Assembly: GCA_963789955.1 (NCBI GenBank)
Contig: CAWBMV010000035.1
Location: 13,366-77,365, forward strand
DNA length: 64,000 nucleotides
From: an uncultured Candidatus Rokubacteria bacterium
GTDB lineage: Bacteria > Methylomirabilota > Methylomirabilia > Rokubacteriales > CSP1-6
Reading direction: 5' to 3'
The notes beneath the pieces are model-generated. The model had not been told where the DNA came from, did not search any database, and worked only from the letters and a program-made list of their open reading frames with translations. Positions 44,589 to 55,565 of the stretch are shown piece by piece. Position 1 is the stretch's first letter; every line of letters starts with the position of its first letter. The translations under genes and the position numbers were made by a program.

Positions 44589-45278
44589 GTGACGATCGCA
44601 TCACGTCGCCGCCTCCCTGATCGCTCGACTCGAAGCGCGCCGGCGAGCAGCCCCGCGCTCAGGACGTACCTTGCGAAGGCCCGAGGGGGCACCAGCAAGG
44701 ATTACCGGAAGAAAACAACCGTCTTCTCGCAGGGTAGTCCCGCGGATTCAGTTTTCTACATTGAGAAGGGCAAGGTGAAGCTGACCGTAATCTCCACGCG
44801 CGGGAAGGAAGCGGTCGTCGCGATCTTGAGCAGCGGCGATTTCTTTGGTGAAGGTTGCCTGGCGGGACAGCCGCTTCGCATGGCCACGGCGATCGCGATC
44901 ACTGAGTGTTCACTCCTTCGACTTCAAAAAGAAACTATGGTCCGAATGCTCCACAATGAGCCCGCATTGTCCGAGCTCTTCATGTCGTACCTGCTGTCTC
45001 GGAATGTGCGGATCGAAGAGGACCTGGTCGATCAGCTTTTCAATTCCAGCGAGAAACGGCTCGCGCGCATTCTGTTGCTGCTGACCCGCTTCGGCAAAGA
45101 CGGGCAACATGAGCCCGTCGTGCCCAAGATCAGTCAGGAAACCCTGGCCGAAATGGTCGGGACGACGCGATCCAGGGTGAGTTTCTTCATGAACAAGTTT
45201 CGGAAGCTCGGCTTCATCGAATATAACGGCGGCTTGAACGTCCATAGCTCCCTCCTCAATATCGTCCTCCACGACTAG
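44589..45278 (+). CDS. Crp/Fnr family transcriptional regulator
   Basis: GDFFGE..RMATA cNMP-binding cassette, EKRLAR, SQETLAEMVGTTRSRVS HTH. Confidence 0.92.
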   Translation: MTIASRRRLPDRSTRSAPASSPALRTYLAKARGGTSKDYRKKTTVFSQGSPADSVFYIEKGKVKLTVISTRGKEAVVAILSSGDFFGEGCLAGQPLRMATAIAITECSLLRLQKETMVRMLHNEPALSELFMSYLLSRNVRIEEDLVDQLFNSSEKRLARILLLLTRFGKDGQHEPVVPKISQETLAEMVGTTRSRVSFFMNKFRKLGFIEYNGGLNVHSSLLNIVLHD

Positions 45279-45367: not shown

Positions 45368-45429
45368 TTGACACCGTAAGTAACCAGCTAGATACTCACG
45401 GCCACGGTTTGGTATCCAGATGGTTACTT
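45368..45429 (+). promoter_or_regulatory. sigma70 promoter with two inverted TetR-type operators
   Basis: TTGACA-N17-GATACT; AAGTAACCAGCTAGATAC (45378-45395) and GTATCCAGATGGTTACTT (45412-45429) are 16/18 inverted copies. Confidence 0.7.
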
Positions 45430-46052
45430 CGAGCCGCGACCCGGTCCGTACTCGCGAGCGCATCCTTCGCGCCGCCCGGCGCGAATTCGTCGCCAAGGGG
45501 TTCGCCGGCGCGCGCGTCGACGTGATCGCGCGCGCCGCGGCCGTGAACAAGCGGATGCTGTACCACTATTTCGACAACAAGGAAGGCCTCTATCGCGCCA
45601 CGCTCTACGAGGGCATGGCGACGAACCTCGATCTGGTCGCCTCCGCGCCGGCCGATCCCGACGACCTCTTGCCGTTCCTGTTCGCGCGCGCCGCGAAGCG
45701 CGTGGACGGGATCCGCCTCCTTCAGTGGGAAGCACTGGGCGCCGGCGCCCGCAAGCCCATTGCCGAGGACGAGCGGCGCAAGGCGTGGGTCGAGGGCACC
45801 GAGCGCATCCGTGACGCGCAGCGCGCCGGCCGGCTGCACCCGGACCTCGACGCCGAGTACCTCGTTCTGGCGCTCATGGCGCTGACGATCTTTCCCCAGG
45901 CCTTCCCCCAGCTCGTGCGCATGGTCACCGGCTCACGACTGTCCGACGCCGAGTTCCAGCAACGCCAGGCGCGCTTCCTTCGCCGCCTGGGCAGCTATCT
46001 GCGGCCGTCCGTGGGGCGCGCGGCGCTCGCGGACAAGGAGAAGCAGCGATGA
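45420..46052 (+). CDS. TetR/AcrR family transcriptional regulator
   Basis: ILRAARREF..GF.GARVD.IA..A.VNKRMLYHYFDNKEGL. Confidence 0.93.
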   Translation: MVTSSRDPVRTRERILRAARREFVAKGFAGARVDVIARAAAVNKRMLYHYFDNKEGLYRATLYEGMATNLDLVASAPADPDDLLPFLFARAAKRVDGIRLLQWEALGAGARKPIAEDERRKAWVEGTERIRDAQRAGRLHPDLDAEYLVLALMALTIFPQAFPQLVRMVTGSRLSDAEFQQRQARFLRRLGSYLRPSVGRAALADKEKQR

Positions 46053-47227
46053 GCTCCGTACCGACCACACTCTTCGGACGCTCGACCGATACGTACACGC
46101 GCGTCGATTCCGTCGGTCTCTACCGGGTCGCGCTCTGGGTGCTGCTGGGCGCCAATCTCCTCGCCGGCTGGGGCGTGCAGTGGGACATCCAGTGGCACGT
46201 GCGCATCGGCCGCGACACGTTCTGGATTCCGCCGCACGTCATCACCTATTCGGGCGTGACGATCCTCGTGCTGGCCAGCTTCGGCGTGCTGGCGCGTGAC
46301 ACGCTTCGCCATCTGCTCGCGGGCCGCGCCCCCGAGGGCACGGAACGCGTGCTCGGCCTCACCGGCACGCCGGGGTTTCTCCTGGCGGCGTGCGGCATCG
46401 CGCTGACGGTTCTGGCGGCGCCGATCGACGACCTCTGGCACCGCTTGTTCGGCATCGACGTCACGTTGTGGAGCCCGCCGCACCTTCTCGGTCTGGTCGG
46501 CGTCACGATCAACACCTTGGGATGCGCGCTCATCGCCCGCGAAGCGTACCCGGCGAAGAGCTGGGTGCGGTTCGCCGGCGTGGTCATCGCGCTCACCAGC
46601 TTCTACGGCAGCCTCTCGATCGGGCTGCGGCCCGCCAGCCGGCTCGCGTATCTATACGGCGGGCTCTGGTTTTACGCCTTTCCGATCCTCGGCGCGCTCT
46701 TCCTGCCGCTGGCGATGATCACGGCCGTGCGCCTCAGCGGGCGGCGCTGGACGCCGATCGCACTGGTGATCGTCGGACTCGCCGTCGGCACGATCGGCGT
46801 GAACATCGCGCGGATCGGCTTCGACATCATGCGGCCGGTCTCGGTGATCGAGGATGAGATCGCCAAGGACCCGACGTCGCCGATCGCGGTGTCCCACGCG
46901 ATCGCGCGGAAGAACGGCAGTACGCCCGGCGGGGTCCCCGGCGGAAGCTTCGCGCGGTTTCTCTCGCTGGTGCCCGTGCTGCTGCTGGTCGCCGTCGACC
47001 CCCGGCGACGGCCGATGTCGGCGACCTTGGTCTACGCCCTGGGGCTGTTCGCCCTCTGGGCCTTCACGATCGGCCGGACACCGGCCTTTCAGCCGATGAT
47101 GCCCGGACCGGCGCCGACCGTGGTCGCGCTGGTGATCACGACCGCGATGGCCGTGGTCGGAGGACTGGCCGCCCGCTGGCTCGCCGAGACCCTGGCGACT
47201 GCGGACCGGGTTCCGGTGGAGGGTTAG
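46049..47227 (+). CDS. Multi-pass membrane protein with PmoC/AmoC-like metal-binding motifs
   Basis: About 9-10 hydrophobic segments; DIQWHVRIGRDTFWIPPH and DDLWHRLFGIDVTLWSPPH; ATGA-coupled to the TetR gene. Confidence 0.75.
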   Translation: MSSVPTTLFGRSTDTYTRVDSVGLYRVALWVLLGANLLAGWGVQWDIQWHVRIGRDTFWIPPHVITYSGVTILVLASFGVLARDTLRHLLAGRAPEGTERVLGLTGTPGFLLAACGIALTVLAAPIDDLWHRLFGIDVTLWSPPHLLGLVGVTINTLGCALIAREAYPAKSWVRFAGVVIALTSFYGSLSIGLRPASRLAYLYGGLWFYAFPILGALFLPLAMITAVRLSGRRWTPIALVIVGLAVGTIGVNIARIGFDIMRPVSVIEDEIAKDPTSPIAVSHAIARKNGSTPGGVPGGSFARFLSLVPVLLLVAVDPRRRPMSATLVYALGLFALWAFTIGRTPAFQPMMPGPAPTVVALVITTAMAVVGGLAARWLAETLATADRVPVEG

Positions 47228-47706
47228 GCGCGCGCGTCGGGAGGGTGGTTTCGGCGAATCTTCGGGCCGCGCAGACGCACGATGGTCCAGCCGATCGCGC
47301 GGAGGAGCCCTTCGGTCCTCTCGGGCGAGCGTCGATTCCTCGGGCGTCGTGCGCCGGGCCGGCGCACCGGATCCAGGGGGCTATCGCCGCGCCGATCCAG
47401 GACGATCTGGACCGTCGCGTTGCCCTCGAAAGCCCGTCTGAAGAAGTTGTAGAGGTGTTCCCGATCCGGTGAGACGACGATGAGCTGTCGGGATCCTCCC
47501 GGCCGCTCGTCGAGGGTCCTCACCCGCCGAACCAGCTCATAGAGCGCGCTCTTACCCCCGTTGTAGCCGAGGGTCTGGGCCCGGCGCATGATTTCGACCG
47601 CCGAGATCGTAGGCTCCTCCCGCAGCCACTGCGCCACCTGGGCCGCGTACTGGGCCACGATGGAAGGGCGCCGTGCATTGCTCGGCTGGGAGCCGCCATC
47701 ACCCAT
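47224..47706 (-). CDS. Hypothetical protein: IS21 IstA-like HTH segment + Arg-rich 'DRR' domain
   Basis: RPS..QVAQWLREEPTISAVEIMRRAQTLGYNGGKSALYELVRRVR then QLIVVSPDREHLYNFFRRAFEGNATVQIVLDRR..LRAIGWTIVRL. Confidence 0.65.
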   Translation of the reverse strand: MGDGGSQPSNARRPSIVAQYAAQVAQWLREEPTISAVEIMRRAQTLGYNGGKSALYELVRRVRTLDERPGGSRQLIVVSPDREHLYNFFRRAFEGNATVQIVLDRRGDSPLDPVRRPGARRPRNRRSPERTEGLLRAIGWTIVRLRGPKIRRNHPPDARA

Positions 47707-47720
47707 AGAAGACCTCTTGG

Positions 47721-47735
47721 GCAAATTTGATACCG
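47721..47735 (-). promoter_or_regulatory. Putative sigma54-type box
   Basis: Minus strand CGGTATCAAATTTGC (GG-N10-GC, TTGC) 14 nt upstream of ATG 47706. Confidence 0.5.
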
Positions 47736-51760: not shown

Positions 51761-53116
51761 ATGGGCAAACAGATCGAAGAGCTGGCCAGCTTCGCCGCGG
51801 CGACACCGTGGGATGCAATTCCGGGCGCTGTTCGAGAGCACGCCAAGCTCGTGCTGCTGGACACCCTCGGCGTGATTCTGGCCGGCTCCGTGCAGCCCGA
51901 GGTCGCCGGCGTGCGGGCGCGGCTGACCGCGACCGGCGGTCGGGGCGCCACGGTCTACGCACCGGGATGGCCGACGACGGATCCGCGTACGGCGGCTCTG
52001 CTCAACGGACTGGCAGGGCGCTCGATCGAGCTCTGCGAGGGACATCGCTACGTCTCCTGTCAGGGCGCCGTGCAGGTCTTGCCGACGGCGCTCTCCTGCG
52101 CCGAGTGGCTCGAGCGATCCGGACGCGAGGCGCTCGCCGCGTTGATCTTCGGCTACGAAGTCGCCGCGCGGCTCGGGGCCGGACTGACGGCACGGCCCCT
52201 CGCGCACCAGAACGGCCAGGCGCCGCTGCTCGGCGCGGTGGCCGCAGGGGCGCGGTTGCGCGGATTGAGCGGCGAGCAGATGAGCCTCGCGCTTCGGATC
52301 GGCGCGATCCTCGCCCTCACGCCCGGCTACACGAACGCCGTCGCGGGCGCGACCGCCCTCAACGTGGCCGGCGGAATGAGCGGCTTCGCCGGAGCGCTGG
52401 CGCCGGAGCTGGCGATGGCCGGGGTCGCCGCGCAGCCGAACGCGATCGAAGAATCCTTCGGGCAGCTGGTCGGAGACGGATTCCAGGCTGCCGCCGTGAC
52501 CGAAGAGCTGGGCAGTCGCTGGGAGATCGCCCGCAACTATTTCAGATTGCGCGCCTGCTGCAACCCGATCTACGCGGCGCTGGACGCGCTCGAGGACATC
52601 CTCGACGATCTTCGGCCCGAGCCTGCCAGCATCGAGCGCATCGACGTGGCAACCTATCGCTTCGCCGCGAACATGCGCGAGCCGAACCCGATCAACTATT
52701 TCGCGGCGAAGTATTCCCTGCCCCACGCGGCCGCCGCGCTGGTCCTGCGCGGCAACGCCGGCTATCACGCGTTCACGGAGGACGTCGTTCGCGACCCGGC
52801 GATCGCGGCCTTCCGCCGGCGGGTCGCCGTGCGCGAGGACCCCGAGCTCAGCGCCGCCGTGCCGCGACTCAAGCCGGCGCGAGTGACCGTGACCTTCACC
52901 GACGGCCGCCAGGTCACGCGGCTCCGCGAGAGCGCGCGCGGCGACTATCAGGATCCATATCGTGACGACGAGATCCGTTCGAAGTTCCGCGAGCTGGCCG
53001 GCGTGGTGCTGAGCCCCGCCGGCGTGGCGCAGGTGGAGGAGCTCGTCGATCGACTCGACCAGCTTCCGCGGCTGGGAACGCTCGTCGAAACGCTACGCGC
53101 TGATCGCGCGCTCTAG
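51761..53116 (+). CDS. MmgE/PrpD family protein
   Basis: LLDTLGVILAG, AALLNG, GYEV, AKYSLP, RG, KFREL. Confidence 0.85.
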   Translation: MGKQIEELASFAAATPWDAIPGAVREHAKLVLLDTLGVILAGSVQPEVAGVRARLTATGGRGATVYAPGWPTTDPRTAALLNGLAGRSIELCEGHRYVSCQGAVQVLPTALSCAEWLERSGREALAALIFGYEVAARLGAGLTARPLAHQNGQAPLLGAVAAGARLRGLSGEQMSLALRIGAILALTPGYTNAVAGATALNVAGGMSGFAGALAPELAMAGVAAQPNAIEESFGQLVGDGFQAAAVTEELGSRWEIARNYFRLRACCNPIYAALDALEDILDDLRPEPASIERIDVATYRFAANMREPNPINYFAAKYSLPHAAAALVLRGNAGYHAFTEDVVRDPAIAAFRRRVAVREDPELSAAVPRLKPARVTVTFTDGRQVTRLRESARGDYQDPYRDDEIRSKFRELAGVVLSPAGVAQVEELVDRLDQLPRLGTLVETLRADRAL

Positions 53117-55565
53117 AGAGGCCCAAAGGCGGGCGGCGGCACGCGGCGTTTCGAGGCCGCTTCGTACGCCGACGCGATCTTCAGGAGGACGTCTTCGCGG
53201 CCGGGCTCGGCCCGGAACACCAGCGAGAAGGGTAAGCCCGGCTCGGGAATCGCCGTCGGCGTGTCCGAGGGCACGGGCACGTACCGCATGCCGTCCGGGC
53301 TGAGCGTGAAGACCGGATCGTAGACGGTCGTGACATAGCCCGCCGGCACCAGCACCTCCGTCAATCCCGCGTTCGGTCCGTAGAACGTCTCCAGCCGAAG
53401 ATTGCCCGGCAGGCCCGGTTGATAGGCGCCACCGATTCTTCCCGGCGGAAACGGCGTGTGCAGACGGACCAGCGCGTCCAGGCGGTTCTCGATCAGGACC
53501 ATCATGTCCACCCGGCGCAGCAGCTCGCGGAGCATGATTCGCTCGTCGACACCTTGACGCCGGCCGAGGGGATTGCGCGGGTCCGTCACTTCTTCCCAGT
53601 TCTTGAACGCGGCGCGCCCGTCGTCGCCCCAGAACTTGGATCGCGCGTTGAGCGCGGCAAAGTCGACGAGCGTCTCGGTGAATCCCCGCGCCTGCCAGTC
53701 GGCGGCCCGCCGGCTCAGGTACTGCGGGACGTGGAATCTGAACGCCATCGCGAGCTCTTGCTCCTGGATCGTCGCGATGTCGAAGTTCCTCGGCGGCTCG
53801 ATGCGTCCTTCCGCCAGCGCGACGCAATAGTCGATCGGCTGCATCGTGCCCGTGCCGAAGGTCTTCCCCGGTGCGAACTCGGTCGGCACGATCGCCGCCG
53901 CGAATTCCTTGAACAGCGGCCGCCCGTCTCGCCCGAGCCTGAACAGCAGATCGGGCATGATGATGGGCACGAGCTGAGCGAGCGCGCGCCTGAAATCCGT
54001 CGTCATGGCCTCGACGTCGGGATCGCGCGTCCACAGGGGATCGGACGACTCGACGAGCGTCGCGCCCAGGCGGCCGCCGAGCATCGCCTTGATCTCCCGG
54101 GCGGCAGCGGTGACGATCGGCTCCTCGGTCTTCGACCCGGGCGCAGTACACCATCGATTCTCGAACGATGCCGATGCGCATCCCCGCGAGCGCGCCCGGC
54201 GTGCCGGCCGTCCGCGCATGACTCGCGTACGACGTGCTCAGCACCGACGAGCGCGGGACCGTCGTGTAGGGATCCCGCGGGTCGTAGTAGCCGTGGACGG
54301 GATCCTTCAGCGCGTCCAGCACCTTCGCGCAATCGGCGAGCGTGCGGCAGAGGATGCCGCTGCGATCGCAGTAGATGTCGGCGCCGATCGCGCCACCGTT
54401 GAACCCGAGCATCGACTTGTGCGGAAGAATCAGCGCCACCGCGTTGTGATTGGCCGGGCCGCGACACGATGCGCGGGTCTCCTCGCCGAGGCTGGCCATC
54501 ACGAGATTGGTACTGACCGACACGCCCGACCCCGAGCTCGAGCCCAGCGAGGCCGCGCGCGTCGTGTCATACGGATTTGCCGGATTGCCGCCCCACGTGC
54601 TGCGCTGGTAGCCCAGGGTCGACGGCAGCACGTTGTCGGGCGTGTGGCGGCCGCCCGGATTGCCGGCGCGCCCGTTGTATTCGGTATTGACCGCCTTGGC
54701 GAAGATGATCGCGCCCTTGTTGCGGAGCTGCTCGACCAGCACGTGATCGCGCGCCGGGAAATCGATGTCGTAGCGCGCGTCGCCGCCGGCCGTGGTGCGC
54801 ATGTCCTTCGTGTCGAACGGATCCTTGAACGAGAACACGACGCCGTACATCGGCATCGCCTCGAGATCGGGATTGCGTCCATACGCGGCGTCGAGCTCGG
54901 CGGCGCGCTCGAGCGCGTCGGGCAGCCGGCGGAACATCTCGCACACCGGCGGCGCGCCCGGCGGCAGTGGCCCCGCCGACGGATGCCGGTCGAAATCTCC
55001 CCGGCAGGTCACGGATCGCTCACCGCGAATGTTGAGCGTCGCCGAGCGCATTCACCTGTCCGGCATTCGGCTTGCCGACGACCATTCCGTATTGCTGCGG
55101 TACGGACGGGTCGGACGCCGTCGCCTCCATGCGCCCGAATTCGAGTGCCGGCCCCCGGTACTTGTGGAGATCGGGCAGCACCACCGACGCCTTGACGGTT
55201 TCCGTGGGAAAGCGCAACGGCGCCAACGCCCGCACCGCGCCGTTCATCGCCGGTATCGGGTTGCCGTCCTCGGTCACGAGCAGGCTGGCGACTCCGTTGT
55301 AGGCGCGCACGCGATCGATGTACTGCTGGACGACCGCGAGACACGTCGTCCGCCCAGACTTGATCGCCGTGTGCAGCTCGTCGATCGTCGCCTCGTCGAC
55401 ACGAAACGGCTTGTCCTGGGCGTCGGGCGCTGGTGTCACGACGTCGCCTCCCCTGCTCCGCGTTCTTGCTCCGCCTTCTGCGCGCGTTCGCTCAGGGCGG
55501 CCCACGGCGAAGAATAGTGTAGCCGCGAGTCTGAAGCCAGCGGGCCGTCCCGACTTCTCAGCCAA
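53113..55565 (-). CDS. Large amidase-signature family protein (frameshifts near 55045 and 54145; start uncertain)
   Basis: EATIDELH, AAELD, SFKDPFDT, GAIIFAK, NPYD, GSSSGSG, ETRASCRGPA, LP, YEAASKRRVPP. Confidence 0.8.

Follow-up and report, generated by a model that had tools for sequence, protein, structure and literature searches.

The closest described systems are the methane and ammonia monooxygenases (pMMO and AMO), which belong to the CuMMOs. These are three-subunit enzymes that are hard to express, and whether their active site is CuC, CuD or both is still debated (PMC13058606). For pMMO, the ligands are Asp156, His160 and His173 at CuC and Asn227, His231 and His245 at CuD, and Arg165 of PmoC binds a water beside CuD (PMC12576850). 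D146 and E218 of AmoC are named as site residues (PMC13058606), and in archaeal AmoC helices 1 and 2 of the bacterial subunit are described as absent (10.64898/2026.08.31.748207). The S-components of ECF transporters, which also resemble part of the protein described below, work by toppling (PMC7145868).

The gene considered here lies in a 64,000-nucleotide stretch of DNA (the window) from a soil bacterium, and the close matches that carry a name are from Candidatus Rokuibacteriota/Methylomirabilota. The product of the gene, P0001, appears to combine counterparts of two CuMMO subunits in one chain.

Gene and predicted architecture

The gene (46049..47227, + strand) is an open reading frame for 392 amino acids with about ten hydrophobic segments or helices. 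Scans of P0001 with Pfam and NCBIfam gave no family above cut-off, PF04896 included, and its AlphaFold model has a pLDDT of 92.5 and a pTM of 0.90. Two halves can be told apart in that model. The N-terminal half (residues 22-166; 46112..46546, + strand) consists of four long helices (22-52, 61-91, 108-134 and 143-166) and has profile matches to AmoC and PmoC, while the C-terminal half (residues 168-392; 46550..47224, + strand) is a six-helix domain whose isolated model reaches a pLDDT of 95.1. From sequence and model, the chain is best described as a C-like half followed by an A-like half, arranged as in xmoCA; this order of C then A is also the customary order of xmo operons.

The N-terminal half and its two metal-site motifs

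The initial annotation had pointed out two motifs of the kind that bind copper in PmoC, and reading of the P0001 translation bore out both, in position and in spacing. The CuC-like site comprises D46 (nt 46184), H50 and H63 (nt 46235) with spacing x3/x12 and, together with R55 and D56, occupies 46184..46237 (+ strand); the CuD-like site comprises D127 (nt 46427), H131 and H145 (nt 46481) with spacing x3/x13 and, together with the invariant D137, occupies 46427..46483 (+ strand), both as delimited by motif and alignment. The comparison with PmoC that accompanied them held as well, the site 1 pattern D-x2-WH-x12-H being present in 16/16 fetched XmoC sequences and the site 2 pattern N-E-x-[GA]-H-x13-H in 14 of the 16. 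P0001 thus shares with PmoC/AmoC (PF04896; 9cl6_C, 7s4m_G, 9pxf_G, 9leg_C) both spacings in the same order, the four helices, and the W, R, D and P of the first loop. It differs in having Asp in place of the CuD Asn, in an interval of 64 residues between H63 and D127 (54-57 between the sites in the fetched XmoC), in falling below the Pfam cut-off, and in the absence of the N-terminal helices of bacterial PmoC. Archaeal AmoC, too, is without the first two of these helices, which counts in favor of the relationship.

The spacing pattern alone is not decisive, since eight of the 43,483 stop-to-stop ORFs in this genome match it and five of the eight do not belong to the family. The significance of the motifs is instead established by the invariance of the six ligands across divergent relatives. 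All six were unchanged in 98/98 aligned relatives, in 85/85 sequences that were picked for full length from database matches and have a mean identity of 28%, and in 70-71 of the 71 members of a far subfamily; both motifs were present in 113/120 relatives, among the matches listed. The proposal that Asp takes the place of the CuD Asn likewise stood, with Asp127 found in 98/98 relatives and both histidines and their spacing kept. Conservation extends to the second shell, with R55 in 98/98, D56 in 94/98 and D137 in 98/98 aligned relatives. R55 aligns at the position of PmoC Arg165, D56 matches AmoC D146, and D137 is one position off AmoC E218. Both sites would face outwards, because basic residues occupy the opposite loops.

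Profile searches, HHalign and reciprocal detection all upheld the suggested relationship to the CuMMO C subunit, and on this sequence evidence the N-terminal half is almost certainly a distant PmoC/AmoC homologue. When a family profile was compared with 177,635 PDB sequences, five matches appeared at E<=10 and the top four were AmoC or PmoC (E 0.0012-0.026); the same kind of search with the single P0001 sequence or with a narrow profile gave nothing relevant. Three N-half alignments, when compared by HHalign with a 16-sequence XmoC profile, scored 89.3, 91.4 and 94.0% (E 2e-6 to 1e-7), and register was kept over the two sites and the linker between them. Against the preferred reading, the first N-half alignment scored 39.5%, and subfamily K scored 0.4% and out of register, this subfamily matching the first family alignment at 98.6% and so being plainly part of the same family. 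The Pfam AmoC profile picked up one family member (L103) across both sites at E 9.8e-4 and, in the reverse search, the family profile picked up a true XmoC (L199) at E 5.1e-5. Among members, PF04896 matched only 5/85, at E 0.026-0.1, and matches of named clusters in the ESM Atlas to AmoC (score 0.88) serve as a lead only. It also counts against the relationship that PmoC was absent from the matches listed in three structure searches with the whole P0001 model, in which the N-terminal half matched generic four-helix bundles.

In a quick tree, eight bacterial XmoC rows lie together beyond a long branch (about 3 changes per column, SH-aLRT 99); the tree is unrooted and holds 63 chosen rows, and the order of events is not readable from it. 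From this separation on a long branch, the family is regarded as a sister group of XmoC and not as nested within it.

The C-terminal half resembles PmoA/AmoA and ECF S-components

The initial annotation had called the C-terminal membrane half long and unrelated, and this part of it was refuted: judged from the model, the fold is very probably one that is common to PmoA/AmoA and to ECF S-components. P0001 is therefore not simply a lone C subunit. In the structure search with the whole model, the top match was the ECF S-component 5edl, over residues 170-392 (Z 13.7). This entry we take to be YkoE. When the isolated half was compared with 48,161 chains, the best 15 were all ECF-type components and PmoA 3chx_B stood at rank 18 (Z 6.3). 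Foldseek with the isolated half gave a probability above 0.5 only for 5edl (0.91) and AmoA 9cl6_B (0.84), among the matches listed, with a TM of 0.41 each, and no match at E<=0.001 for either the whole model or the isolated half.

Realignment of Foldseek's best 1000 chains again placed 5edl at the top (Z 13.7, 167 residues, 3.9 Å), followed by PmoA 9cl2_Ca and 7s4h_B (both Z 10.7, 173-174 residues, 3.4 Å), AmoA 9leg_A (10.6), 9cl1_Ca (10.5), 6cxh_B (10.2), 9pxf_D (9.9) and 9cl6_B (8.9), with RibU at 9.0; unrelated chains began at 6.0. By the tool's own warning, a Z under about 13 can arise from common helical arrangements. Overall, six PmoA/AmoA entries at Z 8.9-10.7 align over 169-176 residues at 3.4-3.8 Å and fall within the top nine of the best 1000. 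On the modelled structure, the matches form two coherent groups that span the whole domain and stand well above the rest. The half is nearer to 5edl by Z-score than to PmoA, which counts against the preferred reading, and the PmoA/AmoA alignments are longer and of lower rmsd than that of 5edl and rank above all S-components but one.

Sequence comparison of this half gave weaker signals. HHalign against PmoA profiles gave E 0.017-0.33 and beat all block shuffles in one of seven comparisons, as against five of six with the S-component profile PF09819 and two of six with a PmoC decoy. This test is low in power, because true subfamilies reach only E 0.019-0.08 with one another; the PmoA profile is also shallow (Neff about 3) and without archaeal sequences, and a search for viral pmoA that might widen it found none. 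HHalign in global mode against PmoA gave nothing, and a profile of the C-terminal half run against PDB sequences gave neither PmoA nor an S-component. Comparisons of HHalign with S-component families gave E 0.001-0.03, and Pfam Trep_Strep matched 2/41 members (E 7.6e-4). The paper on RibU reportedly noted a likeness to a chain of pMMO; the literature searched for a likeness between RibU and pMMO yielded nothing.

The half thus shares with PmoA/AmoA (PF02461; 7s4h_B, 9cl2_Ca, 9leg_A, 9cl6_B) its fold and its placement after C, and differs in an identity of 8-12%, in a profile match that is not significant, and in being joined to the C-like core. The ECF S-components (5edl; RibU, FolT, ThiT; PF09819, PF09605), which act together with an ECF module and bind a micronutrient, provide the best fold match (Z 13.0-13.7) and a weak profile similarity, whereas in P0001 the domain sits behind a metal-site bundle in one chain. 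No gene for an ECF ATPase or T-component was seen among the 12 window neighbours scanned.

xmoCAB genes and a third part in relatives

That the protein occurs without pmoA and pmoB, as first proposed, was supported: PF04896, PF02461 and PF04744 had no match in the 87.2%-complete genome, the first two having given control matches in other genomes and PF04744 having been run without such a control. Profiles for A, B and C also found no match over 80 related loci. P0001 accordingly differs from the xmoCAB holoenzyme, which has separate A, B and C genes and a cupredoxin B, none of which were found here. That holoenzyme is a trimer of protomers and depends on copper to oxidize methane, ammonia or short hydrocarbons. 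Within the host family, AmoC matched 2/158 genomes, one match being a true xmoCA and the other a member of the P0001 family. The true xmoC-xmoA pair (L102 1426-3105, G071:C365; AmoC E 4.3e-48) follows an alcohol-dehydrogenase-like ORF, and its genome also has six matches to the P0001 family.

Ten of the relatives inspected carry a third part, either fused or as the next gene (L003, L005-L008 and L168; L009, L165, L194 and L196). It opens with a signal-like helix and a histidine where cleavage seems, by eye, to take place; a beta-rich domain comes next, and a membrane anchor follows. The domain is present without that histidine in others (L166, L182, L169-L173, L191), and the third part is missing from all 80 of the Rokubacterial loci. 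In position and layout it is like PmoB/AmoB (PF04744), from which it differs in having neither the H-x-H pair nor a profile match; P0001 itself is without it. Homology of the third part to PmoB was considered and found unsupported, HHalign giving at most 6.6% and aligning only the membrane helix, and Pfam showed weak FixH/YtkA matches in 3/16. The sole relative of the third part in this genome is a small gene for a protein with N-terminal His on another contig. It belongs to a copper cluster (L346 3870-9000, G000:C37) that also encodes CopD, CopC, a cupredoxin and, twice over, a membrane protein that has no name.

Distribution and variants of the family

The family comprises 2,315 representatives at 50% identity. 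It was present in 113/251 genomes of the host phylum and 100/158 of the host family, and in 18/121 and 7/121 genomes of two other phylum-level samples, one of the latter seven being a true XmoC; these tallies partly include genomes marked unpublished (G398, G547, G217, G076), as does the AmoC count over the host family, and nothing else claimed here depends on those genomes. Plasmid-borne members occur in Actinomycetota, Bacteroidota, Deinococcota and Chloroflexota. The literature searched, to which subscription papers mostly did not belong, yielded no account of such a family.

The host genome has three paralogues. Both motifs are present in those at L001 7918-9258 (G000:C6) and L002 7461-9075 (G000:C12), the latter of which shifts frame after about residue 290, through a frameshift or an assembly error. 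The neighbours of the paralogues are different and bound to lineage. Tandem pairs of family genes are frequent (L186, L188, L189, L160/L161) in several genomes of the Chloroflexota group and in genomes of the host family, and in the latter a longer subfamily carries a C-terminal soluble domain; the paired proteins possibly act as heterodimers. On a Chlorohelix plasmid, a histidine kinase (L347 2941-7062) begins with the family domain, in which the histidines have been lost and a beta-propeller is inserted within the A-like half.

Regulation and genomic neighborhood

A gene for a TetR-family repressor (45420..46052, + strand; Pfam TetR_N E 1.8e-14) precedes the membrane-protein gene, and its stop overlaps the start of the latter by four bases (ATGA, 46049-46052). 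Upstream lies a promoter-like site (45368..45396, + strand) made up of TTGACA (45368-45373), a spacer of 17 nt and GATACT (45391-45396), both hexamers being invariant in 9/9 aligned upstream regions; this element would function as the promoter. Two 18-nt pseudo-palindromic, operator-like sites (45378..45429, unstranded) form inverted repeats that are 89% complementary. That at 45378-45395 covers the promoter spacer and the -10, that at 45412-45429 covers the tetR start codon, and their cores are kept in 9/9 aligned upstream regions. It is likely from this arrangement that TetR binds at both sites and that tetR and the membrane-protein gene constitute an autoregulated two-gene operon. The coupling to TetR put forward initially therefore stands at the window locus, given the overlap and the operators, and falls as a trait of the family, tetR being upstream only in the 8 closest of 80 related loci. 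A family-wide TetR link was rejected on counts of 8/80, 0/80 and 0/62 loci with three TetR queries.

Twenty runs of RNA libraries contain 10-47% of the sequence words. Four aligned runs consist of contigs only, one of which bridges tetR and the membrane-protein gene, and this does not show transcription. One RNA-library contig joins window positions 44654 and 45360 and omits the upstream Crp-family gene; a related strain therefore lacks that gene. Downstream and convergent is an ORF of 166 amino acids (47224-47724, - strand) whose N-terminal stretch resembles an IS21 transposase (E 7.5e-6), and such an ORF adjoins the membrane-protein gene in 3/80 related loci. Farther along, what by eye looks like a single amidase-signature protein is divided among three ORFs that overlap and differ in frame (53093-55565, - strand).

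Ten plasmid loci, taken from 7/10 matches of one search and 3/8 of another, were examined for neighbors: copper or heavy-metal genes clearly flank five, and two more are ambiguous. Elsewhere, 13 queries found copper-type neighbors at 1/80 Rokubacterial loci and at 4/80 and 0/62 chromosomal or metagenomic loci, and a CopD query over the chromosomal and metagenomic related loci had 0 matches. A family-wide link to copper islands was rejected on these counts. The neighborhoods point to no pathway, and there is no conserved B-like, electron-transfer or pathway gene beside the Rokubacterial genes; this, and the presence of copper genes at only 1/80 Rokubacterial loci, count against the reading preferred below.

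Possible functions

The preferred reading is that P0001 is a one-chain, CuMMO-related membrane metallo-oxidoreductase, probably with copper, and the case for this reading as a whole is about evenly balanced. Its parts differ in strength. That P0001 binds metal is very likely, and copper is the somewhat favored metal; redox catalysis is close to an even call, and it is reasonably probable that both halves descend with CuMMO C and A as a unit. Two histidines and a carboxylate also suit iron or zinc. On present evidence P0001 does not count as a monooxygenase of methane or ammonia; it would rather work like the C and A core of a CuMMO, yet outside the xmoCAB family.

In the mechanism proposed, the N-terminal half would be the four-helix metal core of PmoC/AmoC, with two 2-His/1-Asp sites next to each other on the outward side of the membrane, where they would bind a pair of redox metals, copper being the most likely. 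Packed on these sites, the A-like half would provide the pocket in which a small organic or lipophilic molecule is bound as substrate, and the site could activate O2 or pass electrons, with quinol as a likely donor. TetR, on its two operators, would silence both genes of the operon until it was released by a small ligand, for which the substrate or its product is a plausible candidate.

The structural match at the top of the list, a transporter S-component at Z 13.7, could be taken to mean that the protein handles metal, its sites capturing copper or another metal outside and the S-component-like half moving it on, as an importer, a buffer or a chaperone relay, with the N-terminal-His partner domain of relatives feeding metal to the sites. 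The weak similarity in sequence to S-component families (HHalign; Pfam Trep_Strep) agrees with this, as do the clear copper or heavy-metal genes at half of the plasmid loci, the weak FixH/YtkA matches of the partner domain and the position of its genomic relative beside CopD, CopC and a cupredoxin. We nevertheless consider it unlikely, because copper-type neighbors are rare at chromosomal and metagenomic loci (as counted above, over a limited set of queries), the islands on plasmids are mobile elements related to one another and do not count as independent cases, the regulator at the window locus is a TetR and no member of a metal sensor family, and an N-terminal half of 168 residues would be expected to impede the toppling of an S-component.

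If the metal is not a redox one, a dimetal site of Zn, Mn or Fe might hydrolyze or dehydrate a lipophilic substrate held in the S-component-like half: the Asp/His/His sites, the invariant acids D56 and D137, and R55 could accommodate a pair of divalent ions together with a water, and the surroundings show no conserved gene for a redox partner. This is improbable in that the sole characterized relatives are copper oxygenases, which the W-H-x-x-x-x-R-D loop matches in detail. About equally improbable, and if anything slightly more so, is an independent fusion of a PmoC-like module with an ordinary S-component, acting as a sensor or binding protein for a ligand or metal, in which the likeness to PmoA would be one of fold only. 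The sequence links do favor S-components over PmoA, and one relative without the histidines is joined to a histidine kinase, but a C-like core would then have met the same rare fold twice, in xmoCA order, the PmoA/AmoA structures have the rank and the alignments described above, and none of the ligands varies among the stand-alone proteins.

Implications

P0001 may be a simple, single-chain relative of the methane and ammonia monooxygenases. A natural chain in which both sites are joined to an A-like domain could be expressed and mutated directly, and the family offers a natural Asn-to-Asp change at CuD as well as an outgroup for CuMMO phylogeny. A broader picture can be put forward tentatively, and is doubtful in its entirety: a large sister group of the CuMMOs with C and A in one chain and a PmoB-placed His domain in many lineages, which would retain the ancestral layout from before pMMO and AMO were split, tie PmoA to S-components, and include an active one-gene copper oxygenase. 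The family is found mostly in organisms without CuMMOs, as in the host family, where 100/158 genomes have it and one has a true xmoC. Its size and its mostly non-CuMMO hosts point to an undescribed metal chemistry at the membranes of common soil bacteria.
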